Shown piece after piece: positions 6,844-45,927 of a stretch of DNA of 64,000 nucleotides. Numbering within the stretch: position 1 is the stretch's first letter; every line of letters begins with the position of its first letter. Below the pieces are notes generated by a model. That model searched no databases. It worked only from the letters and a program-made list of their open reading frames with translations, and was not told the DNA's origin. The stretch is from Candidatus Lustribacter sp. (GTDB lineage: Bacteria > Vulcanimicrobiota > Vulcanimicrobiia > Vulcanimicrobiales > Vulcanimicrobiaceae). Made by a program: the position numbers and the translations under genes. Where the stretch lies: positions 544,001-608,000 of the forward strand of contig OZ255842.1 of the NCBI GenBank assembly GCA_965277805.1. The letters are read 5' to 3'.

Positions 6844-8115
6844 ATGCTCAGTCGAGCCGATAACGAACTGATCACGGCGGTGGGGCCGGGCACGCCGATG
6901 GGCAACGCAATGCGCGAGTACTGGCTGCCGGCCGTGCGTTCGGACGAAGTCGATGCCGACGGCGCACCGCTGCGCGTTCGCATGCTCGGCGAAGATCTGA
7001 TCGCGTTCCGTGACTCGACGGGCCGGGTGGGGCTCGTGGAGGCGTTTTGCCCGCACCGCCGCGCGCCGATGTTCTTCGGACGCAACGAAGAAGACGGCAT
7101 TCGCTGCGTCTATCACGGCTGGAAATTCGATGTCGGCGGACGCTGTACCGATATGCCGAGCGAGCCGCCGGACTCACTGTTCAAAGACAAGGTTCGCATC
7201 GGCGCATATCCGTGCCGGGAACGTAACGGCGTCGTTTGGACCTATATGGGCACGCGCACCCAGTTGCCCGAACTGCCGGCCCTGGAATGGAACCTCGTTC
7301 CCGAGCCTCAGCGATACATGACGAAGCGCGTTCAGAACTGCAATTACGTGCAGGCGATGGAAGGCGGTATCGATCCCAGTCACGTGTCGTTTCTGCACGG
7401 AACGCTCCAGCACGATCCGGGCAACATCTTCCAGCTCGACCGCAGCCCGCGCTTCGAGTTGCTCGAGACCGCGTACGGTTTGCGCATCGGCACGTGCCGG
7501 CGCATCGGAGCGGAACGCGTGCACTGGAACATCACGCACTTCATGATGCCGTTTTACAATGCGTTTGCCGTTCCCAACGGTGCAGCCGAACCGTCGATCG
7601 GCGGCTTTGCGTGGGTGCCGATGGACGATACGACGACCATGGCGTGGTGCTTCACTTGGAATCCGGCACGACCGCTCACGGCGGATGAAATCGACGAACG
7701 CACCGCCGTGGAAAGGCTTGGCGGAGGCGTGCACTTACGTCCGCAAGATCTGCTGCCGCCGACCTCGGAGCCGGGCGGCGCGTGGCGGCCGATCGGCAAC
7801 AAGTCGAACGACTATCTACTCGACCGCGAGGCGCAGCGCACGCAGCGGTTCGCGGGCGTCCCCGGCCTTTCGCTGCAAGACGTGTCGCTGCAAGAAGGGA
7901 TGGGCGCGATTTCCGATCGCTCGCGCGAGCATCTCGGTACGAGCGATGCGGCGATCATCAACGCGCGCCGTCTGCTGTTGCGCGCGGCACGCGGCACACT
8001 GCAGGGGCGTGATGAGCCGCAAGCCTATCACGTGCGCGCGTTGGGACTCGCGCTGGTCCCGGAAGAAGACTGGACGGCGGCCGCGGCCTCGTTCGTTACC
8101 CCAGCGGGGGCTTAG
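6844..8115 (+). CDS. Rieske oxygenase alpha subunit, phthalate 4,5-dioxygenase/LigX-like
   Basis: CPH...CVYH Rieske motif; EGGIDPSHVSFLH iron site; EHLGTSD; RBS GGAGG. Confidence 0.92.
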   Translation: MLSRADNELITAVGPGTPMGNAMREYWLPAVRSDEVDADGAPLRVRMLGEDLIAFRDSTGRVGLVEAFCPHRRAPMFFGRNEEDGIRCVYHGWKFDVGGRCTDMPSEPPDSLFKDKVRIGAYPCRERNGVVWTYMGTRTQLPELPALEWNLVPEPQRYMTKRVQNCNYVQAMEGGIDPSHVSFLHGTLQHDPGNIFQLDRSPRFELLETAYGLRIGTCRRIGAERVHWNITHFMMPFYNAFAVPNGAAEPSIGGFAWVPMDDTTTMAWCFTWNPARPLTADEIDERTAVERLGGGVHLRPQDLLPPTSEPGGAWRPIGNKSNDYLLDREAQRTQRFAGVPGLSLQDVSLQEGMGAISDRSREHLGTSDAAIINARRLLLRAARGTLQGRDEPQAYHVRALGLALVPEEDWTAAAASFVTPAGA

Positions 8116-10286
8116 CTGCCGTCCCCGGCGTGCAATAGGTTCAGCACGCGCTCGGCCGTAATCGGCAGTTGCTTGAGGCGCACGCCGCACGCATCGAAGA
8201 CCGCGTTGGAGATGGCAGGACCCAGGCCGCCGGTGTTCAGTTCGCCCGCGCTCTTGCCGCCGAACGGGCCCGGTCCTTTTTCGTCGTCCATGAGCACGGC
8301 GCGAAACGGCGGGATGTCGCGCATGCTCGGAAGTTTGTAGTCGGCGAGCGAGAGGTTGACGATGCGGCCGTCCTCGACGATTAGTTCTTCGGTCATCGCG
8401 TGGCCGAAGCCGAACATGAAACCGCCGTCCACCTGGCCGCGAAACGCGACCGGATTGATCATCGTGCCGGTGTCGGCCACGAACGTGATCTGCTGGATGT
8501 CGACAACGCCCGTTTCGCGGTCGACGGCAACTTCAACGGCATAGGCGGCGTAGTTGTTGGCATCGCCGGCGCCGGGAACTTTGCTCGAGTCATAGCTGCC
8601 GACGAATTCGGGCGGCGTCGCCGACGCGCGCGCGAACGCATCGACGGCATCAGGCCACGTCGCGGCCGTGCCGTTCCAGCCGCGCGCGCGCAGCGCTTCG
8701 CTCAACTGTTCGACCGCGTTGAGCGCGGAGTTGCCGACGATGTGCGTGCCGCGGCTGCCGCCGGCGCCCGGATCCTCGCCGGCTTCATCGGTGCCCTTAT
8801 GGACCATGTGAATGCGTTCGAGCTCGATGCCGAGCTGCGCGCTCACGACGCGCTGCACCGCGGTGAGGTTGCCGCCGCCTTGATCGACGATGCCCGTCTG
8901 GATCTCGATCGTGCCGCCGGGACGCGCGATCAGCTTGACGCTGGTTTTGCCGGCGCCCACGTGACGCTTGAAACCGGAGATCCCGCGGCCGCGGCCGGAT
9001 TCGGGCGGCCGGTTCCAATCGGTCTCAACGCGCAAGCGTTCGAGCACGTCGGTCATGCGTTTCTCGGCGGTGTTGGCGATGCGGAACGCAATCGGATCGG
9101 CGCCGATCTCGCGGATGATGATGTCGAGGTGGGATTCAACGGCGAAGAGGATTTGCGTTTCACCAGGCGCGCGGACATGCCCGCCCGGCACGGTGTGGGT
9201 GTACACGCTCATCGCTTCCCAATTCGCATTCGGGATGTGATAGGGGAGCGCGGGCATCGCGTGGACGGCCGGCAGTACGGTCGGAATCGGTTTGCCCGCG
9301 CCGAAAGCGCCGCCGTTGAAGATGATGCGTCCGTTCATCGCCGCGATTTTGCCGTCGGGCGTGATCGCGGTCTTCAGCGTGATCTTGGAGGCGTGCCGGA
9401 CGTTGGTCGAGCGCATGTCGTCGAGGTAGCTGCGCACGGATTTGATCGGGCGTTTCGTCGCGCGCGCCAGAAAGTAGCAGGCGAACTCATCGACCGAGAG
9501 TCCCTTCGCGCCGAAATCGCCGCCGATGTACGCCTGTTCGACGACGATCGATTCGACCGGCAGGCCGGTCGCGATCGAGAGCTGCTTGCGCAGCGCGAAC
9601 GGCGACTTGTTGGTCGAGTAGACGTGCACGATGTCACGCTCGTCGATCCAGACCATCGTCGCGCGCGGTTCGATCGCGGCGCCGAAGTAGCGCGGCGTCG
9701 AGAAGGTATGCTCGAACACGCGATGCGCGCCGGCGAATGCCGCATCGGGATCGCCGTGCGTCTCGCTCAGGTAGCCTTGCATGTTGGGATGCGGCACGGG
9801 CGACCGTTTGCCCGGGATGATGAACGGATACCGTTCGGGATGGGGGTGAATGACCGGGGCGTCCGCGGCGATCGCTTCTTCGGGATCGAAGATCGCCGGC
9901 AGTTCGTCGTACTGCACGTCGACGGCCTGCGCGGCAGCTTGCGCCGCATCGCGCGTTTCGGCCGCCACCGCGACCACGTACTGACCGATGAAGCGTACGA
10001 CGTCCGTCGCGAGCACGGGCCAGTCGAAGAGCGCGCGGCCGAGGTAGTGTTCGCCGATGTCCGTGCCGGTGAGTACCGCGTGCACGCCGGGCATCTCGCG
10101 CGCCGCCTTCGTGTCGATCGCAACGATCCGCGCGTGCGCGACCGGGCTCGAGACGAACGCAGCCCATAGCATGCCGGGCCGGGCGGCATCGGCCGCGTAC
10201 GCCGCAGCGCCCGAGACTTTCGCGCGGCCTTCGACGCGTATCTCGTTGGTGGCAAACGGCGAACGCGCCGGAGCAATCACGGTCAT
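8112..10286 (-). CDS. Xanthine dehydrogenase family molybdopterin-binding subunit
   Basis: GGDFGAK, RAPG, GGSRGT, GQVDGG, GPFGGKSAGE. Confidence 0.9.
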   Translation of the reverse strand: MTVIAPARSPFATNEIRVEGRAKVSGAAAYAADAARPGMLWAAFVSSPVAHARIVAIDTKAAREMPGVHAVLTGTDIGEHYLGRALFDWPVLATDVVRFIGQYVVAVAAETRDAAQAAAQAVDVQYDELPAIFDPEEAIAADAPVIHPHPERYPFIIPGKRSPVPHPNMQGYLSETHGDPDAAFAGAHRVFEHTFSTPRYFGAAIEPRATMVWIDERDIVHVYSTNKSPFALRKQLSIATGLPVESIVVEQAYIGGDFGAKGLSVDEFACYFLARATKRPIKSVRSYLDDMRSTNVRHASKITLKTAITPDGKIAAMNGRIIFNGGAFGAGKPIPTVLPAVHAMPALPYHIPNANWEAMSVYTHTVPGGHVRAPGETQILFAVESHLDIIIREIGADPIAFRIANTAEKRMTDVLERLRVETDWNRPPESGRGRGISGFKRHVGAGKTSVKLIARPGGTIEIQTGIVDQGGGNLTAVQRVVSAQLGIELERIHMVHKGTDEAGEDPGAGGSRGTHIVGNSALNAVEQLSEALRARGWNGTAATWPDAVDAFARASATPPEFVGSYDSSKVPGAGDANNYAAYAVEVAVDRETGVVDIQQITFVADTGTMINPVAFRGQVDGGFMFGFGHAMTEELIVEDGRIVNLSLADYKLPSMRDIPPFRAVLMDDEKGPGPFGGKSAGELNTGGLGPAISNAVFDACGVRLKQLPITAERVLNLLHAGDGS

Positions 10287-21810: not shown

Positions 21811-23049
21811 CTACTCCAGTGCGTGCGCGACCTCGCCGATCACCCGGGCCCATGACGGTTCGGCCGCGTGGAAGACGCGCATCGTGGGATACCAGGGCGT
21901 GCCGGCCGAGGCAGGTGACCAGCGCCAGTCCGGGCGCCATGGCAAGACGAGCCAAACCGGCACGCCCATGGCGCCGGCGAGGTGCGCGACGCTCGTGTCG
22001 GCGGAGATCACGAGATCGAGGTTGGCGACGATCGCCGCGGTATCGGCCATGTCGCGAACGGCATCGCCGAAGCGCGTGAGCGCGAGGCCTTCGGGCGCCG
22101 GGTCGCCGGCACGCGGGCCATATTGGAGCGCGAACCATTGCACGTGCGGCACGCGGGCGAATGCAGCGAACGCGTCGAGCGGGATCGAACGGCGGCGATC
22201 GTTGTCGTGCTGCGGATTGCCGGCCCACGCGATGCCGATTCGGCGCTCGCCGTTGCGCGGCGCGAAACGTGCCGCCCACGCATGCAGGCGCGCGTCCGGC
22301 GCGGCGATGTAGGGGACGCCGCTATGCCCGGGCGTGCCGTCTTCATTGCAAAGCCGGGCGAGCACCATCGTGCGCGCGTAGGCGTCGAAGCGTTCGCGCG
22401 GCGCGCTGCCGGAACTGAAGATCTCGCTGATGCCGGGAAAGCCGCGCAGCAGTTCGATCATCGCCGGATTGCACTCGAGCAGAACCTCGCCCGCGCCGCG
22501 CGCGCGCAAGCGCGAAACGTAGCGCAGCATCTGCATGAGATCGCCGAGGCCCTGATTGTTCACGAGCAGTAACCGCCGGCCGGCGAGATCCTCGCCGTCC
22601 CACTCGGTGAGTTCGGGAAAGCGCGCGCGGAAGTGGATGCGCTCGGGCAGCCAATGGCACTCGAGTTCCGGCCACGCGGCCGGATACTCGCCATGCCATG
22701 CGCGCACCGTTCCGAGCACGGCATGCGCTTCGCGATCGGCCGGATCGATCGCGATCGCGCCGTTAGCGGCGGTGAGTGCCGCGGCATGATCGCCGAGCCG
22801 TTCGCGCACGAGTGCGAGCGTGATCAGCGCGAGGACCGCTGGTTTGCCCTGCGGGTCGAGACGGATCGCAGCTTCGCAATCGGCCACCGCCTCCTCGGAG
22901 CGGCCGAACTCGTCGTACGCGGCGGCACGGTAGACGTAGAGCATCGCGTTGCCGGGATCGGCTGCGAGCCCGAGGCGGCAGGCATCGATCGTCGTTGCAT
23001 GCGCACCGTAAGCGTTGCAGAAGCGCGCGGCCTCGACGTAGTCGATCAA
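21811..23049 (-). CDS. TPR-repeat glycosyltransferase (GT9-like C-terminus)
   Basis: TPR helices, then QGLGDLMQ, GIAWAGNP, DLVISADTSVAHLAGAMG, DWRW; TTG overlaps the upstream TGA. Confidence 0.88.
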   Translation of the reverse strand: MIDYVEAARFCNAYGAHATTIDACRLGLAADPGNAMLYVYRAAAYDEFGRSEEAVADCEAAIRLDPQGKPAVLALITLALVRERLGDHAAALTAANGAIAIDPADREAHAVLGTVRAWHGEYPAAWPELECHWLPERIHFRARFPELTEWDGEDLAGRRLLLVNNQGLGDLMQMLRYVSRLRARGAGEVLLECNPAMIELLRGFPGISEIFSSGSAPRERFDAYARTMVLARLCNEDGTPGHSGVPYIAAPDARLHAWAARFAPRNGERRIGIAWAGNPQHDNDRRRSIPLDAFAAFARVPHVQWFALQYGPRAGDPAPEGLALTRFGDAVRDMADTAAIVANLDLVISADTSVAHLAGAMGVPVWLVLPWRPDWRWSPASAGTPWYPTMRVFHAAEPSWARVIGEVAHALE

Positions 23050-24533
23050 GCGGGGAGCGCTCGGTGAAAGCGCCGGCCGGCGAGATCGTCGACCGCCCCG
23101 ACGATGCGGTCGAAGCGCATCGTCGTCCGGTGTTCCGTATCGTAGTGGGGCCACACCGGCAGCGCGGCGTTATCGGGTTTGCCGCTTGTCGTGAACGCGA
23201 TCCAGGTTTGCTGGATCACGTTCGAGAGCGCTTCGATCTCGCTCGCATGCGCGTCGCCGAGCATCGGTGCGTGAGCCCACGCCGCATCGTAACCAAAGAC
23301 GAACGGAAGCTCGATGCAGTGGCATGCACCGAAGCGTTTGGGCGCGTGCCGCGGCGCCCAATCGAACTGATAGACGTACGCCGGACGGCCGGCGCCGCTG
23401 CGCCAATCCGCCAAGTCCAGCAATTGCATCAGGAACTGTTGATCCGTGAGCAGATCGGTCAGCAGCGCGAGCGCATCGGATCCCGGCCGCCGGCGGCGAT
23501 AGCCGTCCTCTTCCGCCGCGGCGCGGTCGCCGAACTCGCGCGCAAACACGCCGGCGACCTGCTCCGGCGTGGCGTTGATGATACGCGGATCGATCGCGCA
23601 GAAGGCACCGGACTCTTCGCGCGTCGTGCCCATCAGGATCTCGACGTGCGGCGCCGGCCGCTCGCGCAGCGCGGTCAACGGGTCCTGCGGGATGACGGCG
23701 CCGTCGATCACCGGCGCGAAGAGCGGTGCCGCGTCGGCGAACCGCGCGTGCACGCCGCTCAGCTCGCCTTGGACGCGCATCAGGTCCGCGACGGGGACCG
23801 CTTGCATCGCGGCTAGTTCGCTCGCGCTGCATCTCTCCGCGAATTGCGCGCCGATTGCCGCCGCATCCGCAGCCGTGCGTGTCAGGCGCGCCATCGCGGG
23901 GCTCTGCAAGATCGCGCGCGCGAACAAACCGTCCGCTTCCGGCATGGTCATCAGAATTAGCGCGGACATCGCGCCGGCGGATTGTCCGCACAGCGTCACG
24001 GCCGCCGGGTCGCCGCCGAATGCGGCGATGTTGTCGCGCACCCAACGCAGCGCGGCCAGCTGATCGAGCAGGCCGAGATTGCCGTCGCTGATTCCGGGCG
24101 CATATAAGTAGCCGAGTACGCCAAGTCGATAGTTGACGCCGACCACGACGAGATCGCCGCGCTCGGCGAGCTTTGCACCCGAATAGCAATCGAGCGAACC
24201 CGCGCCGCTCGAGAACGCGCCGCCGTGCAGCCACACGAGCACCGGCCGCTGCTTTGCATCGGTCGCGGGCGTCCAGATCGTGAGCGTCAGGCAATCCTCA
24301 TCGCTCTCCAGCGGCGTTTCGCCCATGACGTCGGCGAGTCGCGAACGCAGTTGCGGCGGCGCGGGGCCGTTCTGCGTGGCATCGCGCACGCCGCTCCACG
24401 GTTCGACCGCGGCCGGCGGCCGGAAGCGGCGCACGCCCAACGGCGGCGCCGCGTACGGGACGCCGCGGAACACGGACACGCCTCCTTCGTGCGCGCCGGA
24501 CAACGTGCCGGCGGCGGTTTTACACGTAATCAT
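23046..24533 (-). CDS. Type-B carboxylesterase
   Basis: EDCL, HGGAF, GQSAG nucleophile, ACHCIE. Confidence 0.93.
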   Translation of the reverse strand: MITCKTAAGTLSGAHEGGVSVFRGVPYAAPPLGVRRFRPPAAVEPWSGVRDATQNGPAPPQLRSRLADVMGETPLESDEDCLTLTIWTPATDAKQRPVLVWLHGGAFSSGAGSLDCYSGAKLAERGDLVVVGVNYRLGVLGYLYAPGISDGNLGLLDQLAALRWVRDNIAAFGGDPAAVTLCGQSAGAMSALILMTMPEADGLFARAILQSPAMARLTRTAADAAAIGAQFAERCSASELAAMQAVPVADLMRVQGELSGVHARFADAAPLFAPVIDGAVIPQDPLTALRERPAPHVEILMGTTREESGAFCAIDPRIINATPEQVAGVFAREFGDRAAAEEDGYRRRRPGSDALALLTDLLTDQQFLMQLLDLADWRSGAGRPAYVYQFDWAPRHAPKRFGACHCIELPFVFGYDAAWAHAPMLGDAHASEIEALSNVIQQTWIAFTTSGKPDNAALPVWPHYDTEHRTTMRFDRIVGAVDDLAGRRFHRALPA

Positions 24534-24571
24534 AAAGAGAGTCCCCGGGGTTTGGCGAACGGAGCGTCGTC

Positions 24572-25462
24572 GTGCATCAGATTACGGGCCTTGTGGCCGG
24601 TACCACGCGCTTTCCCAGATACGATGCGGCAACGCTGGGCTTCGAAGAGTATTGGTATCCGGTAATGTGGTCGCAAGACCTTCGCGCGAAGCCCGTTGCG
24701 CTCTCGCTGTTCGGACGGCGGTTCGTGTTTGCGCGCGTCAACGGCGTCGCCCGCGCGCTGCCGGCGTGTGCGGTCGAGGAATGTGCCGGTCTCGTGTGGG
24801 TGTACAACGGCAACGGCGAACCGCGCCCGCTGCGCGCGCAAGTGCCGGAAGAATTGCTGCACGCGGATGCCGTGATCGAGGGACGCATCACCACGCGTAA
24901 GGGCGACTGGCGCTATGCAGCCGAGAACGGCTTCGATGAAGGGCACGTCAAGTTTCTTCATCGCGATGCCTGGCTGGTAACGTTTACGCACATTCCGAGC
25001 TACTCGACGGTGGCCGTGCACGGCGAGAGCGAGAACGATCCGTGGATCACACGCAACGTGTCGGCCGTGGGCTTCGAGGCCAATTATCCGGGGCTCGGCG
25101 AGTGGCCGAAGAAGCGGTTTTGGAAGCGTAAGAAACGCGGTGTGCGCGTGTCGATTCGCATGCCGGGAATGCTGCGCGTGCACTACGGCGACTGGATTCA
25201 TTTCGAGACCTACGTCCCAACCGTTCCCGGCGAACACCGCTATCTGCAGATCGCGATGAGCCACGCGCGCGGCTGGCAGGCGGCAAAGTTCCGGGCGTTT
25301 TACCGCGGCTACTTGTCGTGGATCTTTCACCGTCAGTTCAACGATCAGGATGCGGCGATGGTGGAGCTGATGCAGACGCCGCCCGAGCAGCTCTACCGGC
25401 CCGACATCTCCTTGATCGAGTGGCGGCGCATGTGTGAAACGCAGATCGGAGTGGGTTCATGA
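24572..25462 (+). CDS. CarAa/OxoO-like aromatic oxygenase subunit lacking the Rieske cluster-binding subdomain
   Basis: LGFEEYWYPVM N-terminus; WRYAAENGFDEGHVKFLH and FNDQD iron site; no CxH/CxxH anywhere in 296 aa. Confidence 0.8.
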   Translation: MHQITGLVAGTTRFPRYDAATLGFEEYWYPVMWSQDLRAKPVALSLFGRRFVFARVNGVARALPACAVEECAGLVWVYNGNGEPRPLRAQVPEELLHADAVIEGRITTRKGDWRYAAENGFDEGHVKFLHRDAWLVTFTHIPSYSTVAVHGESENDPWITRNVSAVGFEANYPGLGEWPKKRFWKRKKRGVRVSIRMPGMLRVHYGDWIHFETYVPTVPGEHRYLQIAMSHARGWQAAKFRAFYRGYLSWIFHRQFNDQDAAMVELMQTPPEQLYRPDISLIEWRRMCETQIGVGS

Positions 25463-26958
25463 ACACCGTGGTGCTGAAGAACGCGCACGTCATCGACCCG
25501 GCCAACGATCGCAACGGCGTGATGGACGTGGCGATCGACGACGGCACGATCTCGTCGGTCGGTGCCGCTGCGGTGCCCGCGGGCGCAGAGATCATCGATC
25601 TCGCCGGCGCGTATCTCTCGCCCGGCTGGATCGACGCGCACGTGCACGCGTACGGAACGCTCGGTTTTGCCGATCCGGACAGCATCGGGGTCTACCAGGG
25701 CGTGACGACGTTCGTCGAAGCCGGCGGACCGGGTGTCGGCACGCTCGATGAGTTCATCGCGACGATGGCGGACCGTACGCTGACGAGCCTCTACGCGGGC
25801 GTGTACATCCGGCCGCTTGGAATCATCGGGCTGACGTTCATCGAAGACGACGTGCGCAATTGGCTCGACGTACCGGTGGAGCGCTGGATCGATACGGTCG
25901 CGCAGCATCGCGATCTCATCCGGTATCTCAAGATCGGCGCGTTCGCGAAGTACGGACCGGGCCCGCTGAAGCTCGCCAAGGGGCTGGCCGAGACGCTCGA
26001 CGTCCCGCTGTACTGCCACATCGGCGAATTCGCGGCGACGACCGGCGAAGTGGGCTCGCACGACATCTTCCGCATCGCCGAGGCCGGCGACATGATCACG
26101 CATCTCTACAACCGCAACCTCGGCGGCGTGCTCGATGACGACGGCCGCGTGCGCGACGTCGTCTGGGAGGCGCACAAGCGCGGCGTGCTCTTCGACATCG
26201 GCTTCGGCGGTTACAACTTCTCGTGGGACGTTGCCGAACGCGCGTACGCCCAGGGTCTCGTGCCGCACTTGATCAGTTCCGACCTGCAGCAATTCAACGT
26301 CACGGGTCCGGTATTTTCGCTAGCTAACGTGCTCGCCGTGTTCCTGCGGCTCGGCATGCCGCTGCGCGACGTGATCGCGTGCGTGACGGCCAACCCGGCC
26401 CGCGCGTTGCGGCTGACCGATCGCGCCGGCAGCTTGCGCGCGGGAGCGCCGGCGGATATCACGGTGTTCCGGGTGGTGGACGAAGCGGTCACGCTGGCCG
26501 ATTGTCATTCGGTGACGCGCACGGGCGATCGCGTCGTTCGTCCGGTGATGACGTACAAGAACGGCGTGCGCGTGGATGCCGACCTGGAACGCTGCCAGGA
26601 TGAAGCGAATTGGTTCATGCAGGTGCTCGACGAGCGCTGGCCCGCGGCCGCACACACGTTTTCAGATCGGCAACGCGCATTTCTGCGCGCACTGGTACCC
26701 GAACTCGAAGGGATCGACTGGCACTTGGAATCTGCGAAACAGCAAGACATCCGCACGGCGACGCGCCTGCAAGCCGCCGTGCACGCGGCGAAAGACCGTA
26801 CGGGCTTGAGTTTGCGCGAGACGCTTGCGACCGTGTACGGCTCTTTCATCGAGCAGCCGTTCTCGATCCAGGTCGGGCTCTTTCTGCTCCGGATCGAGCG
26901 CGCGTTCGCGCTCGAACGCATGCGCGAGATCGGTGCGAGCTCGGTGGTGCCCGTATGA
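25459..26958 (+). CDS. Amidohydrolase/dihydroorotase-like metallohydrolase with a C-terminal extension
   Basis: WIDAHVH, YLKIG, CHIGE, ITH, SSD, TANPARAL. Confidence 0.85.
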   Translation: MNTVVLKNAHVIDPANDRNGVMDVAIDDGTISSVGAAAVPAGAEIIDLAGAYLSPGWIDAHVHAYGTLGFADPDSIGVYQGVTTFVEAGGPGVGTLDEFIATMADRTLTSLYAGVYIRPLGIIGLTFIEDDVRNWLDVPVERWIDTVAQHRDLIRYLKIGAFAKYGPGPLKLAKGLAETLDVPLYCHIGEFAATTGEVGSHDIFRIAEAGDMITHLYNRNLGGVLDDDGRVRDVVWEAHKRGVLFDIGFGGYNFSWDVAERAYAQGLVPHLISSDLQQFNVTGPVFSLANVLAVFLRLGMPLRDVIACVTANPARALRLTDRAGSLRAGAPADITVFRVVDEAVTLADCHSVTRTGDRVVRPVMTYKNGVRVDADLERCQDEANWFMQVLDERWPAAAHTFSDRQRAFLRALVPELEGIDWHLESAKQQDIRTATRLQAAVHAAKDRTGLSLRETLATVYGSFIEQPFSIQVGLFLLRIERAFALERMREIGASSVVPV

Positions 26959-27794
26959 CCGCCACGGCGACGATTCCGCCGAGCAAGTACGCCGAGATCG
27001 GCGACGGCCTTCGCATTCACTATCACGAGGTCGGAAATGGCCCGGCGCTGATCTGTCTGCACGGTGCGGGCCCCGGCGCGACGGCATGGAGCAATTTCCA
27101 GGGCAACCTCGCCGCGCTCGCGGCGAACCATCGCGTGTATCTCGTGGACATGCCGCAATTCGGCAAGTCCAGCAAGCCCGTCATCACCGGACCGCGCCTG
27201 ACCGCGTTCACCGGCATGATCGAGGCCTTCATGCGCTCCGCCGGGATCGAGCGCGCTGATTTTATCGGCAACTCGTTCGGCGGTCAGGTGTCGCTGAAGA
27301 TGGCGATCGACTTTCCGGACCGCGTGAATCGCGTCGTGATCATCGGCAGCACGCCGGTTGCGATCAGCGCGATCTCGCCGATGCCTGCCGAAGGCGTGCG
27401 CCTCATCGCCAATTACTATCGCGGCGAAGGCCCGTCGCTCGAAAAGCTGCGTTATCTACTCTCAACGCTCGTCTACGATGCGAGCAATCTCAGCGAGAGC
27501 GTGTTGAAGGAGCGCTACGAAACGAGCCTCGATCCCGAGTTGATCAAGGTGAATACGGGGCCGCGACCGGAGTACGAAGACCTGACGATGGAGTTCAAGC
27601 GCATCAAGGCGCCGACGCTGATCGTCTGGGGCGCCGAGGATCGCGCCGGCCCGATCGACGTGGCGCTCTTCATGGTCCGCGCGATTCCGAATGCCCGCAT
27701 GCACGTGTTCAATAAGTGCGGCCACTGGGCGCAAGTCGAGTGCGTCGATGAATTCAACGAGCTGGTGCTCGCGTTTTTCAACCGCCCGGCATGA
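26955..27794 (+). CDS. Meta-cleavage-product hydrolase-like alpha/beta hydrolase (BphD/CarC type)
   Basis: HGAGPGATAWSNF, GNSFGG, WGAEDR, CGHWAQVE. Confidence 0.88.
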   Translation: MTATATIPPSKYAEIGDGLRIHYHEVGNGPALICLHGAGPGATAWSNFQGNLAALAANHRVYLVDMPQFGKSSKPVITGPRLTAFTGMIEAFMRSAGIERADFIGNSFGGQVSLKMAIDFPDRVNRVVIIGSTPVAISAISPMPAEGVRLIANYYRGEGPSLEKLRYLLSTLVYDASNLSESVLKERYETSLDPELIKVNTGPRPEYEDLTMEFKRIKAPTLIVWGAEDRAGPIDVALFMVRAIPNARMHVFNKCGHWAQVECVDEFNELVLAFFNRPA

Positions 27795-28120
27795 ATGCAG
27801 CCGGATCGTGGGAACGGCTGGAGATCGATCCGAGCTCGGCCACGTTTCCGGCGCCGGCGACCGTTGCCGGCGAACCGATTTGGGTGTTTGCGGTGGGCGA
27901 CGGCTTCCGCGGCGTGCAAGAGATGTGCCCGCACGAACGGCGCAGCTTGGGTGAAGCGCGGCTGGTGGGCGACGCGAAGATGGTGCGCTGTGCATACCAC
28001 AACTACACCTTCAAGCTGAGCAACGGCGGCGGCGTGAACTGCCCCGGCTTTCGCATCGCCGTGTACGCGATCAAAGAAGAAGACGGCGCGCTGTTCGCGC
28101 AGCCCGTACCGGCTAGCTGA
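27791..28120 (+). CDS. Rieske [2Fe-2S] ferredoxin
   Basis: 109 aa; CPH...CAYH; ATGA overlap. Confidence 0.85.
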   Translation: MNAAGSWERLEIDPSSATFPAPATVAGEPIWVFAVGDGFRGVQEMCPHERRSLGEARLVGDAKMVRCAYHNYTFKLSNGGGVNCPGFRIAVYAIKEEDGALFAQPVPAS

Positions 28121-29465
28121 GAATCTCCCACACGGCGGCGGCGCGCGCGAACAACTCGGCATCGCGATCGTGAAAGCCCAGCAATTGCAGGCCGAGCGGC
28201 AGCGATTCGGTTTCCAGCAGCGGTAACGACAGTGCGGGGATGCCGAGCAGGCTGCCCGGCACGACGAACGCCGGCTCGCCGGTCCACTCGAGGCCGACCG
28301 GCGCGGGGCCGGGCGCGCTCAACGAGATCGCGCCGTCGCAGACGGCCGAGAGGCGGCCGTAGAGCGCGCGGATCTCGTCGCGCCGCGCGATGTTCGCCTG
28401 GTACTCCTCGAGCGTCGTGGATTCCGCGATCGCGAGGCGCTCTTGCATCGCCGGGCTGAGCTTCGCGTAATCCATATCGTGCGCGAACGTGTTGAGCGGC
28501 CAGCGGAATTCCCAATTGTTGATCCGCGCGGAGAGCGCCCGCGATTCGGGCAGCGCGGCCTCGAGTTTCGCGACGCGGCTGCTGTTGTGGCGGTCGACGA
28601 TCGTGATGCCGGCGTTGCGCAGCATGCCGATGGCGACGTTGAGTTTGCCTTTGGCGTCTTCGCTCGCGAGCTCCCAGCCCGGCGTCTCGAGTAACGCGAG
28701 CGTTGCGGGCTTGCGCGCCGGCGGCGGCCGCAGCGGTCCGCGCACGCCGGGAAAGCCGGGGTCGCCACCCGCGCGGGCGACGATCTCGTGCACCACGAGC
28801 CACGCATCTTCGAGCGTGGCCGCAAGCACGCCGTGCGTGCTCTGGCTCTGATAGTCTACCGCGCCGCCGCGATTGATGCCGCCGACCGTCGGCTTATAGC
28901 CGACGCAACCGCAATAGCTCGCCGGTCGCAGAATCGATCCGATGACTTGCGTGCCGAGCGCGGCGCACAACATCCCCGAACCGACCGCCGCCGCCGAACC
29001 GCTGCTCGAACCGCCGGGCGTCCGCGTGAGGTCCCACGGGTTGTGCGTTTTGCCGGCCACGATCGACGCGAGCTCGGTGGTGACCGTCTTGCCGACGATT
29101 ACTGCGCCCGCCTCACGCAGTGCCGCAACGCTCGCGGCATCGCGGCCGCTGCGATAGCCGGTGAAGAGCGGCGAGCCCATGCCGGTCGGCATGTCGGCCG
29201 TCTCGATGATGTCTTTGACGCCGAACGGGATGCCGTCGATCGACGACCTCGGCGTACCGTCGCGATAGCGCTGCGTCGCTGCATCGGCGCTCGCGCGGGC
29301 GCGGTCGAGATCGATGTACTCGAAGGCTTGCACATCGCGGTTGATCGCGTCGATGACCGCGATGCAACGCTCAAGTAACTCGCGCGGCGAGTCGGATCCC
29401 GCGGCGAAGGCCGCCGCGGCGGTGTGAAAGGGACGAACGGCCGGACGTACAGGCATCACGTCCAT
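28113..29465 (-). CDS. Amidase signature family enzyme
   Basis: GVKD, TPGGSSSGS, GTQVIGSILRPA. Confidence 0.92.
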   Translation of the reverse strand: MDVMPVRPAVRPFHTAAAAFAAGSDSPRELLERCIAVIDAINRDVQAFEYIDLDRARASADAATQRYRDGTPRSSIDGIPFGVKDIIETADMPTGMGSPLFTGYRSGRDAASVAALREAGAVIVGKTVTTELASIVAGKTHNPWDLTRTPGGSSSGSAAAVGSGMLCAALGTQVIGSILRPASYCGCVGYKPTVGGINRGGAVDYQSQSTHGVLAATLEDAWLVVHEIVARAGGDPGFPGVRGPLRPPPARKPATLALLETPGWELASEDAKGKLNVAIGMLRNAGITIVDRHNSSRVAKLEAALPESRALSARINNWEFRWPLNTFAHDMDYAKLSPAMQERLAIAESTTLEEYQANIARRDEIRALYGRLSAVCDGAISLSAPGPAPVGLEWTGEPAFVVPGSLLGIPALSLPLLETESLPLGLQLLGFHDRDAELFARAAAVWEILS

Positions 29466-40896: not shown

Positions 40897-41824
40897 GATC
40901 TTTGGCGTCAAACCGATCCGGAATGAACTTATAGCGCGCCGACGCGTCGATTAAGGGCTGCAGGTTGGCCGGGTCGAGCTTCCAGCCTTGAAGCACGCGA
41001 ATCTTGCCGACGTCGCTCGACTGCACCATAGCGAACTTCGTCAACAGGCCGGCCGTCTCGGCATGATGCCCGTTCACGTAGATCGAGGCGTCGCGAATGA
41101 TGCGCATGAAGCGGTTGACGGCGTCGGGATTCTTCTGCGTGTAAGCGATCGTCGTGAACCACGCCGAATCGGTGTGGTGATTTCCGGTGGCGCTGACCGG
41201 ATCGCCGAGCGAGCGCACCGTCCCCGCTGCGAGTGCCGGCGCGAGGAAGGGCTGGATGAGCACGGCTGCATCGATGCGTCCGGCCGTGATCGCCGCCGTT
41301 ACCGAACTCATCGGCAGTTCGAGCAGCTTGACCGTGGATGAGTCGCCGCCGAACTTATCGACCCACGCGCGAACCGAAATCGAAAACGAGTCGTTGATGG
41401 CGGATACGGCAATCGTCTTACCGTTCAAATCGGGCCCGGGACGCAGCGTCGAGTCGGGGCGTACGACGACGTTCGCCGCCGGGTTTGAAACGTCGTAGTC
41501 GCCGGCCGCCGAGATCGCAACGATCGGCAGCCCGTGCACGTGCGCCGTGAGCAGTGAGATGACGCTCGACTTCCCGACGTCGAACGATCCGCCGACGACC
41601 GCCGAGGCCGCGGCCGCGCCGCTCGTGGCGCGCTCGAGCGTGGCGTCGAAGCCATTCTTACGGAAGATCCCGTTTTCCATCGCGTAGAGATATGGCGTCG
41701 CGGCGTCGTCGATCGCCGACGTCGCGCGAAGCGGAGTCAGCGCCTGAGCGCAAGCGCGCCGCGGCGCCAGCGCGACCGCGGCGGCGGAGCCGGCCAGAAA
41801 CGCCGAGCGGCGCAGCGCGCGCAT
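40871..41824 (-). CDS. ABC transporter substrate-binding protein, NMT1/SsuA-like
   Basis: RRSAFL Tat-like signal; DLNGKT, GRIDAA. Confidence 0.87.
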   Translation of the reverse strand: MRALRRSAFLAGSAAAVALAPRRACAQALTPLRATSAIDDAATPYLYAMENGIFRKNGFDATLERATSGAAAASAVVGGSFDVGKSSVISLLTAHVHGLPIVAISAAGDYDVSNPAANVVVRPDSTLRPGPDLNGKTIAVSAINDSFSISVRAWVDKFGGDSSTVKLLELPMSSVTAAITAGRIDAAVLIQPFLAPALAAGTVRSLGDPVSATGNHHTDSAWFTTIAYTQKNPDAVNRFMRIIRDASIYVNGHHAETAGLLTKFAMVQSSDVGKIRVLQGWKLDPANLQPLIDASARYKFIPDRFDAKDLIYQNALR

Positions 41825-43089
41825 CAGAACTTGGTGGCGAGGTCCGGCTTCGTGGCGGCGCGCCACTCGGCATCGGGAGCGATCAGCCGGTCGAAGGACC
41901 GGATGTTCCGGTACGTCGCCGGATCGACTGCGCGCAGCGTGCCGCCGCGTTCGAGCGAGTCGAGCGCCTCGGTCAGCACTTGACGCAGCGTGATGATCGC
42001 GCGGTCCGTGGTGCCGAGATGTTCCTTCGAGCGGTCGACGATCGGCCCCATGCCTTCTTGCAGCGCGAGGTCTTGCGTATTGATGCCCTGGATGCCGGTC
42101 ATCGTTTTTTCTTTTTGAACTTTGCGATCGATTTCGTAATCGTTCGCCTTGTTCAAGCGCGAGCGGTAGTTCGCATCGAGGAAGTCACCACGGCCCAAGC
42201 GCGTCTCGCGCGCGCGGACCTTGTCGTGCTCGAACGGCCGCGCCGGATCGTGCGAGTAGCCGAAGCTGTAGACCCAGGTGTGTTCGTCGTCGATCGGCAC
42301 CCAGATGTGCCCGTCGATCGTCGGCCCGTCCGAACGGCGGCCGAAGGGCCCTTCGACCGTCGCGCGCATGTGGAACGAAGGCATGATGTAGTGATACCCG
42401 CGCACCCACGTGTTGTTGGTGAGTTTGCGAATGCCGGCGTAGGTGAAGCCGTAATCGGTCTTGTCGAGATGGATGTTCGCGACCAACTCGTCGTAGTTGT
42501 TTAGGAACGAGCGGTCGCCGATGTTCATGTTGTGCATGATCGACGCGTGCGTCGGGTCGATGCCGCCTTCGAGCGCCTGCAAGAAGTTGCAATCCTCGAA
42601 CGACTTCGAAACGTGACGGTGCGTCGCGGGCGTGCGCACGAGTTCGTGACCGGGCGGTTCCGGTTTGAGCTCCGGAGGGCCGAGGTAGGCCCAGATCATT
42701 CCGCCGCCTTCCCACGTGGGATACGCGTCGATAGTGACCTTCGTTTTAAACAGCGAATCCGGCGGCTCGGACGGCATGTCGACGCACGCGCCGTTGCGGT
42801 CGAACTTCCAGCCGTGGTACACGCAGCGCAGCCCGCAGTCTTCGTTGCGGCCGAAGAACATCGGCGCGCGCCGGTGCGGGCAGAACGCGCTGACGAGCCC
42901 CACCGCACCCTCGGTGTCGCGGAACGCGACCAAGTCTTCGCCGAGCAAGCGTACGCGCACCGGCGCGCCGTCGGGATCGGCGAGTTGTTCGGTGAGCAGC
43001 GCCGGCAGCCAATAGCGGCGGAACAGCTTGCCCATCGGGGTATCCGGGCCGACTCGGGTCAGGCGCTCGTTTTCGGCGGGTGAAAGCAT
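41824..43089 (-). CDS. Rieske oxygenase alpha subunit, phthalate 4,5-dioxygenase/LigX-like (paralog of 6844-8115)
   Basis: CPH...CVYH; EGGIDPTHASIMH; EHLGTTD. Confidence 0.92.
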   Translation of the reverse strand: MLSPAENERLTRVGPDTPMGKLFRRYWLPALLTEQLADPDGAPVRVRLLGEDLVAFRDTEGAVGLVSAFCPHRRAPMFFGRNEDCGLRCVYHGWKFDRNGACVDMPSEPPDSLFKTKVTIDAYPTWEGGGMIWAYLGPPELKPEPPGHELVRTPATHRHVSKSFEDCNFLQALEGGIDPTHASIMHNMNIGDRSFLNNYDELVANIHLDKTDYGFTYAGIRKLTNNTWVRGYHYIMPSFHMRATVEGPFGRRSDGPTIDGHIWVPIDDEHTWVYSFGYSHDPARPFEHDKVRARETRLGRGDFLDANYRSRLNKANDYEIDRKVQKEKTMTGIQGINTQDLALQEGMGPIVDRSKEHLGTTDRAIITLRQVLTEALDSLERGGTLRAVDPATYRNIRSFDRLIAPDAEWRAATKPDLATKF

Positions 43090-44133: not shown

Positions 44134-45429
44134 ATGACGGCCACCGCGCAACCTACGGAGATCCGCTCGCTTTTGCGGCTCGACGAAGGGTACGTGCATT
44201 CAGACGTGTACACCAGCCCCGCCATCTTCGAGCGCGAGATGGAGCAGATTTTTCATCGCGGCTGGGTGTTCGTCGGCCACGATTCCGAAATTCCGGAAAA
44301 CGGCGACTACGTGCTCCGCTGGATCGGCCGCCAATCCGTCATCATGAACCGCGACAGCCACGGCAACGTGCATCTGTTCATGAACCGGTGCCGCCACCGC
44401 GCGAACAGCGTCTGTCAATTCGAACGCGGTAACTCCGCGTTCTTCCGCTGCGCCTATCACGGCTGGACGTACAAGGATAGCGGCGAGCTGGTCGGCGTGC
44501 CGTACGCCGAGGGCGCGTACGAGCCGCCGCTCGACAAAGACAACTTCGCGCTAATCCCGACCCCGCGCATGGGAATCTACCGCGGTTTCGTATGGGGCTC
44601 GCTCGCGAGCGAAGGCCCGTCGCTCGACGATCATCTCGGCGTCTCGGCAAAGCGGGCCGTCGATCTGTTCTGCGATCACTCGCCGATGGGCGAAATCGAA
44701 GTGCGTCACGGCGCGACGAAGTCGGTTATCTACGCGAACTGGAAATTCCAAGGCGGCGACGGTTACCATCCGCCGTTCACACATCAAGCCGATTTCGGAT
44801 CGATCCGCGCGGCGCGCGAAGGCCGGCCGAACGCGCTGCTCGGCATGATCAAGAAAGATACGACGCTCTCGCGCGATCTCGGCAACGGCCACTTCTGTTT
44901 GGACATCCGCACGATGGGCCGCGGACCGCTGCCGGACAAGCCGTGGGCGAAAGAATACCTCGCCTCGATGGTCGACGCGTACGGCGCCGAGCGCGCGAAG
45001 TACATCATGGATAGCGGCGGACCGCACACGATCCTGATGCCGAACATCCAGCTGCTCAACCCTGACTTACGCGTGCTGCGCCCGATCGCCGCCGACCAAT
45101 TCGAGATCACCTTCTACTGTGCGTTTCTCAAAGGCGTGCCGAAGGAAGTCAACACCGCACGCGTTCGCCTCACCGAAAGCCGGATGGGTCCGGCGGGTAG
45201 CGTCAACGTCGACGACGTCGAGATGTTCGAACGCAATCAGCTCGGCATGCAGCAGCTCGTCGACCCGTGGAAGTTCATCGGACGCGGCATGGCGCGCGAG
45301 CACACCGACAACGACGACGCGACGCCCGAAGCGTATCGCTACGAGAACAGCCGTGCGGCGCACTACTCCGACGAGCTCACGCAGCGCGCGCAGCTGCGCT
45401 GGTGGGCCGCCCAGCTGGAGCGGGAGTAG
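44134..45429 (+). CDS. Aromatic ring-hydroxylating dioxygenase alpha subunit
   Basis: NRCRH...CAYHGW; NWK...DGYH..FTH; DDVE. Confidence 0.92.
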   Translation: MTATAQPTEIRSLLRLDEGYVHSDVYTSPAIFEREMEQIFHRGWVFVGHDSEIPENGDYVLRWIGRQSVIMNRDSHGNVHLFMNRCRHRANSVCQFERGNSAFFRCAYHGWTYKDSGELVGVPYAEGAYEPPLDKDNFALIPTPRMGIYRGFVWGSLASEGPSLDDHLGVSAKRAVDLFCDHSPMGEIEVRHGATKSVIYANWKFQGGDGYHPPFTHQADFGSIRAAREGRPNALLGMIKKDTTLSRDLGNGHFCLDIRTMGRGPLPDKPWAKEYLASMVDAYGAERAKYIMDSGGPHTILMPNIQLLNPDLRVLRPIAADQFEITFYCAFLKGVPKEVNTARVRLTESRMGPAGSVNVDDVEMFERNQLGMQQLVDPWKFIGRGMAREHTDNDDATPEAYRYENSRAAHYSDELTQRAQLRWWAAQLERE

Positions 45430-45927
45430 ATGCAGACGATCGAGCCGGACGTCACGTTCACGCGCGAGAGCGTCGAGACGTTTCTGTATCAAGAGGCGCG
45501 CTTCGCCGACGAAAATCGCTACGACGAGTGGCTCGCGCTCTGGACCGGGGATATCCGCTATTGGGTACCGGTGAACGTCGATGAGTACGATCCCGACGAG
45601 CACGTGTCGATCATCTTCGACAATCGCGAGCGTTTGCAAGACCGCATCACCCGGCTCAAATCGGGCGGGGCCTGGTCGCAAGAGCCGCAATCGCGCATGC
45701 GCCGCATCGTCTCCAATATCGAGATCGCGCCGGCCAAACGCGACGACGAACGGCTAACCGTTTCGAACTTCGTGTTGGGCGAACTGCGGCGCGGCCGTGA
45801 AGCGGTGTACTTCGCGCAGCAGAAGCACCGGCTGCGCCTAACGCCCGACGGCCTGCGGATGGCCGAGAAGACCGTGCTTCTCGTGAGGAACAACGAGCCG
45901 CTTCATAACCTTTCGTTCATCCTCTAA
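45430..45927 (+). CDS. Aromatic ring-hydroxylating dioxygenase beta subunit
   Basis: FLYQEA, YWVP, RIVSN; abuts the alpha subunit. Confidence 0.92.
   Translation: MQTIEPDVTFTRESVETFLYQEARFADENRYDEWLALWTGDIRYWVPVNVDEYDPDEHVSIIFDNRERLQDRITRLKSGGAWSQEPQSRMRRIVSNIEIAPAKRDDERLTVSNFVLGELRRGREAVYFAQQKHRLRLTPDGLRMAEKTVLLVRNNEPLHNLSFIL

Follow-up and report, generated by a model that had tools for sequence, protein, structure and literature searches.

A CarAa/OxoO-type Rieske oxygenase alpha subunit without its cluster, encoded in one operon with a free Rieske ferredoxin

An Alpha Subunit without the Cluster-Binding Lobe

The window studied here, a 64,000-nucleotide stretch of DNA from the uncultured soil bacterium Candidatus Lustribacter sp., covers positions 544001 to 608000 of the single contig (C1; OZ255842.1) of a 5.53 Mb genome, here called G000 (assembly GCA_965277805.1). 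It contains a four-gene operon on the plus strand, the first gene of which encodes a Rieske oxygenase alpha subunit without a Rieske cluster (24572..25462) and the last a free Rieske-type ferredoxin (27791..28120), with genes for a dihydroorotase-like metallohydrolase and a meta-cleavage-product (MCP) hydrolase between them. The genes overlap by ATGA at positions 25459-25462, 26955-26958, and 27791-27794, and because of these overlaps we consider the 4 genes to be translationally coupled. An earlier note on this DNA had described such an operon; here the 3 overlaps were located, the products were matched to domains, and every detail of what the note had observed was borne out. Judged from the sequences, the reading that the 2 outer genes together encode a split Rieske oxygenase is plausible.

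The alpha subunit is 296 amino acids long and its gene begins with a GTG start codon, with the sequence GGAG 8 bases upstream. Residues 78 to 288 matched the Pfam family PF11723, the homotrimeric ring hydroxylases that include CarAa and OxoO (positions 1 to 233 of the 241 in the profile) with a score of 77.1 bits against a cut-off of 24.4, whereas PF00848 and PF19112 matched more weakly, and the most similar protein of solved structure was CarAa (PDB 3gkq; E = 1.4e-24), which places the protein in the CarAa/OxoO type. The motifs WYPV, ENGFDEGH, and FNDQD start at residues 28, 118, and 256. The Rieske domain PF00355 was not found in the alpha subunit by the Pfam scan, no C.H or C..H motif occurs across its 296 amino acids, and its 3 cysteines are located at residues 66, 71, and 288, so that the N-terminal Rieske [2Fe-2S] centre of alpha subunits is lacking. 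In this respect the motif search agreed with the earlier note, which had seen neither CxH nor CxxH in the open reading frame (ORF) but had seen ENGFDEGH and FNDQD retained.

The segment ARVNGVARAL (residues 54 to 63) directly abuts PACAVEECAGLVWVYNG (residues 64 to 80). In an alignment of alpha relatives (A1), the full-length proteins P0004, P0006, P0011, and P0018 all carry an additional 56 residues where window residues 63 and 64 meet, and these contain CPHRG and CRYHGW, that is, both of the cluster-ligand motifs. Alignments, gap counts, and the DNA alignment agree that the codons for P64-A65-C66-A67 (24761..24772, plus strand) stand in place of this cluster-binding lobe. Against CarAa of Novosphingobium KA1, alpha residues 14 to 64 aligned with residues 18 to 69 and alpha residues 61 to 289 with residues 122 to 371, and since the aligned blocks skip the CarAa segment between 69 and 122, the cluster-binding segment of CarAa has no counterpart in the alpha subunit. 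The deletion is in frame and takes out exactly the cluster-binding segment, leaving the flanking strands, as the earlier note had proposed from the junction.

The iron site is retained. The motif E118-x3-D122-x2-H125-x4-H130 (24923..24961, plus strand) contains 2 histidines that we take to be iron ligands and the aspartate that we take to be the bridging residue, these roles being assigned after naphthalene dioxygenase (NDO) and CarAa, and D260 of the FNDQD motif (residues 256 to 260; 25337..25351, plus strand) is the likely iron carboxylate ligand. Residues E118, D122, H125, H130, and D260, as well as F256, N257, and Q259, were invariant in a 66-sequence alpha alignment (A4), and the 2-His-1-carboxylate site with its bridging aspartate is thus present in the sequence. 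In other Rieske oxygenases, where a head-to-tail alpha3 assembly brings a Rieske cluster close to the iron of the neighboring subunit, the residue corresponding to D122 links an iron ligand to the Rieske histidine of that neighbor.

The fold is predicted to be retained as well. The AlphaFold2 (AF2) model of the alpha subunit, built with alignment A4, had a predicted local distance difference test score (pLDDT) of 90.4 and a predicted template modeling score (pTM) of 0.88, and strands 59 to 63 and 68 to 71 were modeled as a hairpin across the junction with a pLDDT of about 95. A Foldseek search with the model returned CarAa first (TMq 0.80 to 0.81) and OxoO next (0.75). VIA-align superimposed the model on CarAa (6ll0_A) with a Z-score of 29.9 and a root mean square deviation of 2.8 Å over 282 residues, and on OxoO with a Z-score of 27.0 over 285 residues, whereas dicamba monooxygenase, phthalate dioxygenase, and NdmA/NdmB gave Z-scores of about 19 to 22 (19 to 19.5 for NdmA/NdmB). 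With a score above the gathering cut-off and the same fold, the protein belongs to PF11723.

Conservation and Authenticity of the Gene

A protein search for relatives of the alpha subunit gave 295 matches, of which the best 120 were listed and examined. Among these, 12 relatives besides the window protein lack the lobe through an internal deletion (P0002, P0003, P0005, P0007, P0008, P0009, P0010, P0012, P0014, P0017, P0019, and P0120), and at least 11 other lobe-less proteins are 70% to 90% identical to it. The motif is absent for other reasons in P0099, which has a garbled N-terminus, and in P0110, which starts within the lobe. The junctions differ among all cluster-less relatives, the link in the window protein being the shortest, and some relatives contain remnants of the lobe: P0008 retains DTRPH, while P0003, P0014, and P0017 retain pieces of its second half. 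The metagenome protein P0010 (323 amino acids) has CPLCG for CPHRG and ACSH for CRYH, with the rest of the lobe deleted, and in its sister P0005 almost the whole lobe is gone, so that P0010 looks like a snapshot of stepwise lobe erosion. In a DNA alignment of 6 genes, the lengths at the junction differed by +6, +12, +12, +24, and +45 bases, all multiples of 3, so that the reading frame is kept.

Pairwise dN/dS values (omega, Nei-Gojobori) among 5 cluster-less genes ranged from 0.10 to 0.20 for the whole gene, from 0.08 to 0.20 for residues 78 to 296, and from 0.08 to 0.54 for residues 1 to 60, most of the pairs being saturated because dS exceeded 1; for the window gene and its homolog in genome G004, dS was 0.51 and omega 0.14. 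Of the 104 columns outside the lobe that show no variation among 15 full-length relatives, 98 were equally constant in all 11 cluster-less relatives of the clade, and among the remaining 6 columns, 3 deviate in a single row and 3 in more. The lobe itself comprises 57 columns, 30 of which are invariant in the full-length proteins and absent from the cluster-less set. It is highly improbable that the alpha subunit is a non-catalytic remnant that serves as a binding, scaffolding, or regulatory subunit. Pseudoenzymes commonly arise when a cofactor domain is lost, but here all of the iron ligands and 98 of the 104 invariant columns have been kept, and the catalytic part has the lowest omega.

The earlier note had named a deletion unique to this assembly or strain, with close homologs all retaining the cluster motif, as the sign of a recent lesion or a misassembly. 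The opposite was found, in that many diverged homologs share the deletion and are under purifying selection. The alpha gene in genome G003 has a 1-base frameshift in its N-terminal remnant, which could be taken as a sign of decay, but in the same assembly (L014 and L020) neighboring genes are broken up as well, that for the esterase into 5 pieces and those for the TPR protein and the amidase into 3 each, as is typical of indel errors. We therefore read the frameshift as a sequencing error and do not trust the reading frames of this genome. A 13,666-base contig in each of 2 per-run assemblies (X1 and X3, from one sample that is possibly the source) was identical to the window over positions 24400 to 28200; in run X5, 2 contigs overlap the junction, but both fall short of 31 letters on at least one side and do not bridge it. 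A look-up of RNA data sets over the same span listed none. Because at least 12 diverged sequences, obtained from several sources, share the deletion, omega is 0.10 to 0.20, and the contigs are identical, a lesion, pseudogene, or misassembly was rejected and is given next to no weight. To judge from these comparisons, the cluster-less alpha gene is real and held by purifying selection.

Repeated Loss of the Lobe

In a tree of 27 sequences, inferred with the lobe columns left out, the cluster-less state required 6 changes (5 to 6 in the bootstrap trees), and well-supported branches alone forced 3. A single origin was seen in none of the 200 bootstrap trees, and the approximately unbiased (AU) test rejected a single clade for the 11 inner cluster-less sequences (delta lnL 67.6, p = 0.0006), this group having been chosen after a first tree had been viewed. 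The full-length proteins P0004, P0006, P0011, P0013, P0015, P0016, and P0018 are nested among the cluster-less sequences. Further lobe deletions were seen in P0019, P0120, P0241, and P0333, which lie at 30% to 62% identity and each represent one single metagenomic sequence. According to the tree, the lobe has been lost several times, although recombination with full-length paralogs could lower the number of loss events. The differences among the junctions and the half-decayed P0010 point either to several deletions or to a lobe that eroded stepwise once it had ceased to matter. The alpha subfamily is rare in the species genomes searched, with members in 4 genomes out of 401 from the phylum (E ≤ 1e-40), and cluster-less forms are present in 4 genomes of one genus, namely G000, G002, G003, and G004.

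The Ferredoxin and Its Linkage to the Alpha Subunit

The ferredoxin, of 109 amino acids, has the cluster ligands C46-P-H48 and C67-A-Y-H70 (27926-28000, plus strand) and matched PF00355 with 35.5 bits against a cut-off of 20.3. Its best sequence match in the PDB was CarAc (1vck; E = 2e-6), followed by T4moC, while the Rieske domain of an oxygenase alpha subunit appeared among its matches only at an E-value of 0.008. The AF2 model had a pLDDT of 92.3, and a Foldseek search returned BphF (1fqt), CarAc (2de5_D), and the NDO ferredoxin (2qpz) at TM-scores of 0.70 to 0.75, with CarAc chains ranking second and third after BphF. In size, CxH...CxxH motif, and Rieske fold it is thus a ferredoxin of the CarAc/BphF/T4moC type, and these sequence and fold matches identify it as being of the type that usually partners an oxygenase rather than a fragment of this alpha subunit. 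Gene fission was rejected as its source, as ferredoxins of this type are apparently also paired with full-length alpha subunits. The earlier suggestion of a split Rieske oxygenase accordingly stands as regards the cluster-less alpha subunit and the coupled ferredoxin, and falls as regards a split in the sense of gene fission.

Gene neighborhoods were compared at 67 loci, including those of 6 cluster-less alpha genes (the window, G004, G003, G002, L063, and L062). The ferredoxin gene is located within 5 kb of the cluster-less alpha gene in the window, G004, G003, G002, and L063, that is, in 5 of the 5 places that could be evaluated, as L062 ends before the position of the ferredoxin gene. No ORF of less than 220 amino acids with a Rieske motif was found in the other 58 loci. 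Within the genus, G000, G002, G003, and G004 each have a single ortholog of the ferredoxin (at least 56% identity), always at the alpha locus, and G001, G005, G006, and G007 contain none, their matches being about 30% identical or missing altogether. G001 and G007 have the full-length paralog of the alpha subunit alone, and G005 and G006 have neither form.

A profile search with the ferredoxin gave 696 proteins at E ≤ 1e-8. Among the best 120 of these and the best 120 of the 295 alpha matches, 8 ferredoxins sit on contigs of exactly the same size as the contig of an alpha subunit. The alpha subunit is cluster-less on the contigs of 8084 bases (ferredoxin P0140, alpha P0010) and 14799 bases (P0141, P0014), and full-length on those of 141755 (P0155, P0018), 34436 (P0159, P0015), 227408 (P0178, P0033), 9453 (P0168, P0083), 5358 (P0219, P0049), and 1835 bases (P0191, P0089). 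Such pairing is indirect, because equal size does not prove a shared contig. For P0004, P0006, P0011, P0013, and P0016, no contig of equal size was found among the best 120 of the 696 ferredoxins. The pairs suggest that the ferredoxin already partnered full-length alpha subunits, 2 of them within the clade in which the lobe was lost, and since full-length relatives apparently pair with it too, the ferredoxin probably predates the loss. For 11 alpha/ferredoxin pairs, the pairwise identities of the 2 proteins were correlated (r = 0.61, a value reached in none of 5000 label permutations), as expected for jointly inherited genes.

Full-Length Paralogs and the Pathway Context

The full-length subfamily shares its motifs outside the lobe with the window protein, to which P0004 to P0018 are 66% to 81% identical, but it retains CPHRG...CRYHGW, is usually encoded in a characteristic gene module, and at the loci compared is not accompanied by a small Rieske ORF within 7 kb. 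In this module, the alpha gene stands with genes for an M20 hydrolase of about 440 amino acids, an MCP hydrolase, and a LigB-type extradiol dioxygenase, and in many cases with one for an NMT1-like binding protein; the M20 hydrolase gene is present in 41 of the 67 loci and the LigB gene in 32 to 33. The M20 hydrolase is related to the 5-nitroanthranilate aminohydrolase NaaA (5k8p; E = 1e-29), and Pfam gave nothing better than an E-value of 6.5e-5. We observed the module at L016:7169-12263 (about 12169-17263 of contig C1), in L015, L024, and L029, and in about 40 other loci from several phyla, and it appears to represent an undescribed pathway for amino-aromatic compounds. The cluster-less operons have genes for a dihydroorotase-like amidohydrolase and an amidase in place of the M20/LigB module, and the substrates are likely to be aromatic amines, amides, or lactams.

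In G000, the full-length paralog is about 58% identical to the window alpha subunit and is encoded 556 kb away, at positions 12219-13253 of contig C1, in a separate operon without a ferredoxin gene. Paralogs of 46% to 58% identity are present in all 4 genus genomes that contain a cluster-less alpha subunit, and in G002 the 2 forms are located 7 kb apart, in the same cluster as the ferredoxin. These observations could be explained by a hetero-oligomer, namely a mixed trimer in which the Rieske clusters of the full-length paralog feed the iron of the cluster-less subunit and the ferredoxin is the usual shuttle, and the conservation of the N-terminal remnant, which would contribute to a trimer interface (omega 0.08 to 0.54), fits this as well. 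We nevertheless consider a mixed trimer quite improbable, as the paralog in G000 is distant in position, operon, and sequence, at least one iron site in such a trimer would lack a neighboring cluster, and within the genus the ferredoxin tracks the cluster-less alpha subunit rather than the paralog, which is present in G001 and G007, where the ferredoxin has no ortholog.

The earlier note had also stressed that no extradiol dioxygenase is present despite the MCP hydrolase, and this held for the window: tblastn with 2 LigB proteins found no LigB gene there (the genome has 19 LigB matches, all outside 544001 to 608000 of contig C1), and no extradiol dioxygenase was identified among the 45 window ORFs scanned with Pfam, which extend up to position 56620. 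It did not hold beyond the window, given the LigB-type enzyme of the full-length module and a LigB gene directly upstream of the cluster-less alpha gene in G002. The pairing of an MCP hydrolase with no extradiol dioxygenase in the window operon gives some ground for a reaction that needs no external electrons, in which the substrate itself would supply them, for example in a catechol- or aminophenol-like ring cleavage that replaces the missing enzyme; the ferredoxin would then serve other oxygenases, and with 133 matches to the Rieske domain the genome has need of electron carriers. The alpha subunit of G002, however, does not replace LigB, since the LigB gene adjoins it upstream; the ferredoxin is retained in all 5 of the evaluable places and within the genus occurs only with the cluster-less alpha subunit; and the bridging aspartate D122 is invariant. 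We know of no enzyme of this fold that cleaves rings without the help of a Rieske centre, and none was found in a literature search; we regard this explanation as unlikely.

The 133 Rieske-domain matches in G000 are mostly in frames of 350 to 500 amino acids, while Reductase_C (PF14759) had no match in the genome and NAD_binding_1 (PF00175) had 2, neither of them near the window. On the basis of these counts, the separate encoding of reductases and oxygenases is the rule in G000. Overall, the genome has a very large repertoire of oxygenases and very few reductases that can be recognized.

Other Genes in the Operon and the Window

The second gene of the operon (25459..26958, plus strand) encodes a dihydroorotase-like amidohydrolase, or deacetylase-family metallohydrolase, of 499 amino acids, which matched PF07969, PF01979, and PF22647 as well as PDB 8wzy (E = 2.6e-58), and which scored 340 bits against NCBIfam NF006689, below the cut-off of 371. 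The third gene (26955..27794, plus strand) encodes an MCP (C-C bond) hydrolase of 279 amino acids, assigned to this family by its matches to BphD (2og1; E = 6.4e-58), HsaD (7zjt; 1.3e-55), and MhpC (1u2e; 9.8e-54). It was left without a substrate assignment because its scores were below the NCBIfam equivalog cut-offs (260 against 400 for HsaD and 205 against 462 for BphD). Homologs of 50% to 60% identity are encoded beside full-length alpha subunits in most loci. Pfam and NCBIfam indicated no obvious electron acceptor for the ferredoxin among the other operon products, and no reductase or glutathione S-transferase (GST) domain was found with Pfam in the 4 operon genes and both flanking genes.

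Upstream of the operon is a divergent gene for a type B carboxylesterase (23046..24533, minus strand; PF00135, E = 2e-106), which is syntenic in G004 and G003. Downstream is a convergent gene for an amidase-signature amidase (28113..29465, minus strand; PF01425, E = 4e-67), the 3' end of which overlaps that of the ferredoxin gene by 8 bases (28113-28120). In L063, the amidase gene is co-directional and directly follows the ferredoxin gene. A 418-amino-acid protein with a weak Cupin_2 match is encoded directly upstream of the cluster-less alpha gene in L063 (4711-5967, plus strand), and no homolog of it was found in the other loci.

Genes for aromatic catabolism are densely packed in the region. 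The window contains three further Rieske oxygenases (6844-8115, plus strand; 41824-43089, minus strand; 44134-45927, plus strand), which comprise 2 of the LigXa type and one alpha/beta pair, together with 5 NMT1-like binding proteins, 2 luciferase-like monooxygenases, and the large subunit of a molybdopterin hydroxylase (8112-10286).

Comparison with Known Systems

The closest known system is carbazole 1,9a-dioxygenase, for which structures are available (PDB 1WW9, 2DE5, 3GKQ, and 1VCK). CarAa, an alpha-only enzyme of the PF11723 type, is the best match of the window alpha subunit in both sequence and fold, and CarAc is the best PDB sequence match of the ferredoxin. In the car operon, the gene for the MCP hydrolase CarC lies next to that for CarAa, and an MCP hydrolase gene likewise accompanies the alpha gene in the window. 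In contrast to the window protein, CarAa has its own Rieske cluster, the 2 proteins being about 27% identical, and the window operon differs from the car system by the presence of an amidohydrolase and by the lack of a CarB-type extradiol dioxygenase and of a nearby reductase. OxoO (1Z01) is of the same Pfam family, and an N-heterocyclic lactam like its substrate would fit the amidohydrolase and amidase context. Unlike the window protein, OxoO contains its own Rieske cluster, and it is reduced directly by the reductase OxoR, no ferredoxin being known to take part.

A split Rieske oxygenase as such is already known from NdmC and NdmD of Pseudomonas putida CBB5 (PMC4408171). There, NdmC is described as a non-heme iron monooxygenase that lacks a Rieske cluster; it works in one complex with the reductase NdmD, which has an extra Rieske cluster, and with the GST-like NdmE, and NdmCDE acts as the N7-demethylase in caffeine demethylation (PMC4408171). 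The window alpha subunit resembles NdmC in being a catalytic subunit without a cluster, where the cluster is thought to come from another polypeptide (PMC4408171). The 2 systems differ in that NdmCDE includes a Rieske-fused reductase and a GST-like subunit, neither of which is encoded in the window operon, where the candidate donor is a free ferredoxin. Furthermore, the window alpha subunit belongs to another subfamily, with a fold nearer to CarAa (Z = 29.9) than to NdmA/NdmB (Z = 19 to 19.5); only the lobe has been deleted from it, leaving the base of the Rieske domain; the loss is recurrent; and the ferredoxin seems to be older than the loss. In the literature searched, mostly without subscription journals, no paper on cluster-less CarAa/OxoO-type subunits was found, and the phrase "lacking the Rieske" led to bc1/b6f complexes only. 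A term search of the available text of a 2025 review of Rieske oxygenases found no mention of NdmC or of cluster-less forms (PMC12445004).

A Ferredoxin That May Supply the Rieske Centre in Trans

We propose, with a probability of about 0.5, that the ferredoxin provides, in trans, the Rieske centre for the iron of the alpha subunit, the step between the 2 proteins being deduced from gene linkage. This is favored because the gene is under selection, its iron site and fold are kept, and the ferredoxin is linked to it; because CarAa, the nearest solved relative of the alpha subunit, and CarAc are a known acceptor-donor pair; and because NdmC and NdmD provide a precedent. The 56-residue in-frame deletion took out the CxH and CxxH loops and the flanking strands closed into a hairpin, and the alpha subunit would remain a working catalytic subunit, its iron site, bridging aspartate, and remaining fold being kept under purifying selection. 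The ferredoxin, reduced by a reductase encoded elsewhere, would dock at or near the vacated position of the lobe and reduce the mononuclear iron directly, one of its histidine ligands probably reaching D122 from the vacated space. The substrate then hydroxylated by the oxygenase would be an aromatic amide, lactam, or amine, and this compound or its products may be processed further by the amidohydrolase and the C-C hydrolase of the operon. The oligomeric state and the substrate in this scheme we infer.

Several observations weigh against supply in trans. Neither binding nor electron transfer between the alpha subunit and the ferredoxin was shown by any tool, and from the prediction of a complex of 3 alpha subunits with one ferredoxin (alignment A4 and a second alignment, A5), which scored 0.00 in 2 runs made without controls, we draw no conclusion either way. 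The operon contains no reductase gene, and a full-length paralog accompanies the cluster-less form in each of the 4 genus genomes that have it. No convergent substitutions were found in the cluster-less alpha subunits, where differences in 4 or more of 11 rows were limited to I/V at 77, A/E at 283, and L/M at 287, and no obvious residues distinguish the ferredoxins beside cluster-less alpha subunits from those beside full-length ones, all motifs being shared. The ferredoxin family also occurs with full-length alpha subunits, as judged from the equal-size contigs of P0015, P0018, P0033, P0049, P0083, and P0089 and from the presence of both forms in G002, and as it is not exclusive to the cluster-less forms, the ferredoxin could be an ordinary shuttle. 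Finally, docking in the manner of CarAc on CarAa would probably leave the cluster of the ferredoxin too far from the iron.

A broader reading is that the intrinsic Rieske centre has become dispensable in one CarAa/OxoO-type lineage because a free ferredoxin that was already its partner can occupy the site, so that the centre was deleted repeatedly and independently while the ferredoxin filled the vacated place and reduced the iron directly. We put this forward tentatively, at somewhat short of an even chance.

In the textbook view of Rieske oxygenases, the [2Fe-2S] cluster of the alpha subunit itself is the last relay to the catalytic iron. To our knowledge, NdmC is the single described exception and has been little followed up. 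The window alpha subunit represents a second, unrelated cluster-less case, for which the repeated losses, the strong purifying selection, and the strict linkage of a ferredoxin are clear signs from evolution that it has a function, and it belongs to a group that annotation pipelines, to judge from the names of the database relatives, call ordinary dioxygenase large subunits. If the ferredoxin does feed the iron directly, the operon would encode a natural two-polypeptide Rieske oxygenase with an exchangeable cluster, reached by a route other than that of NdmCDE. It would then provide a small natural system for electron delivery between proteins to a 2-His-1-carboxylate site, and a template for oxygenases with swappable redox modules.

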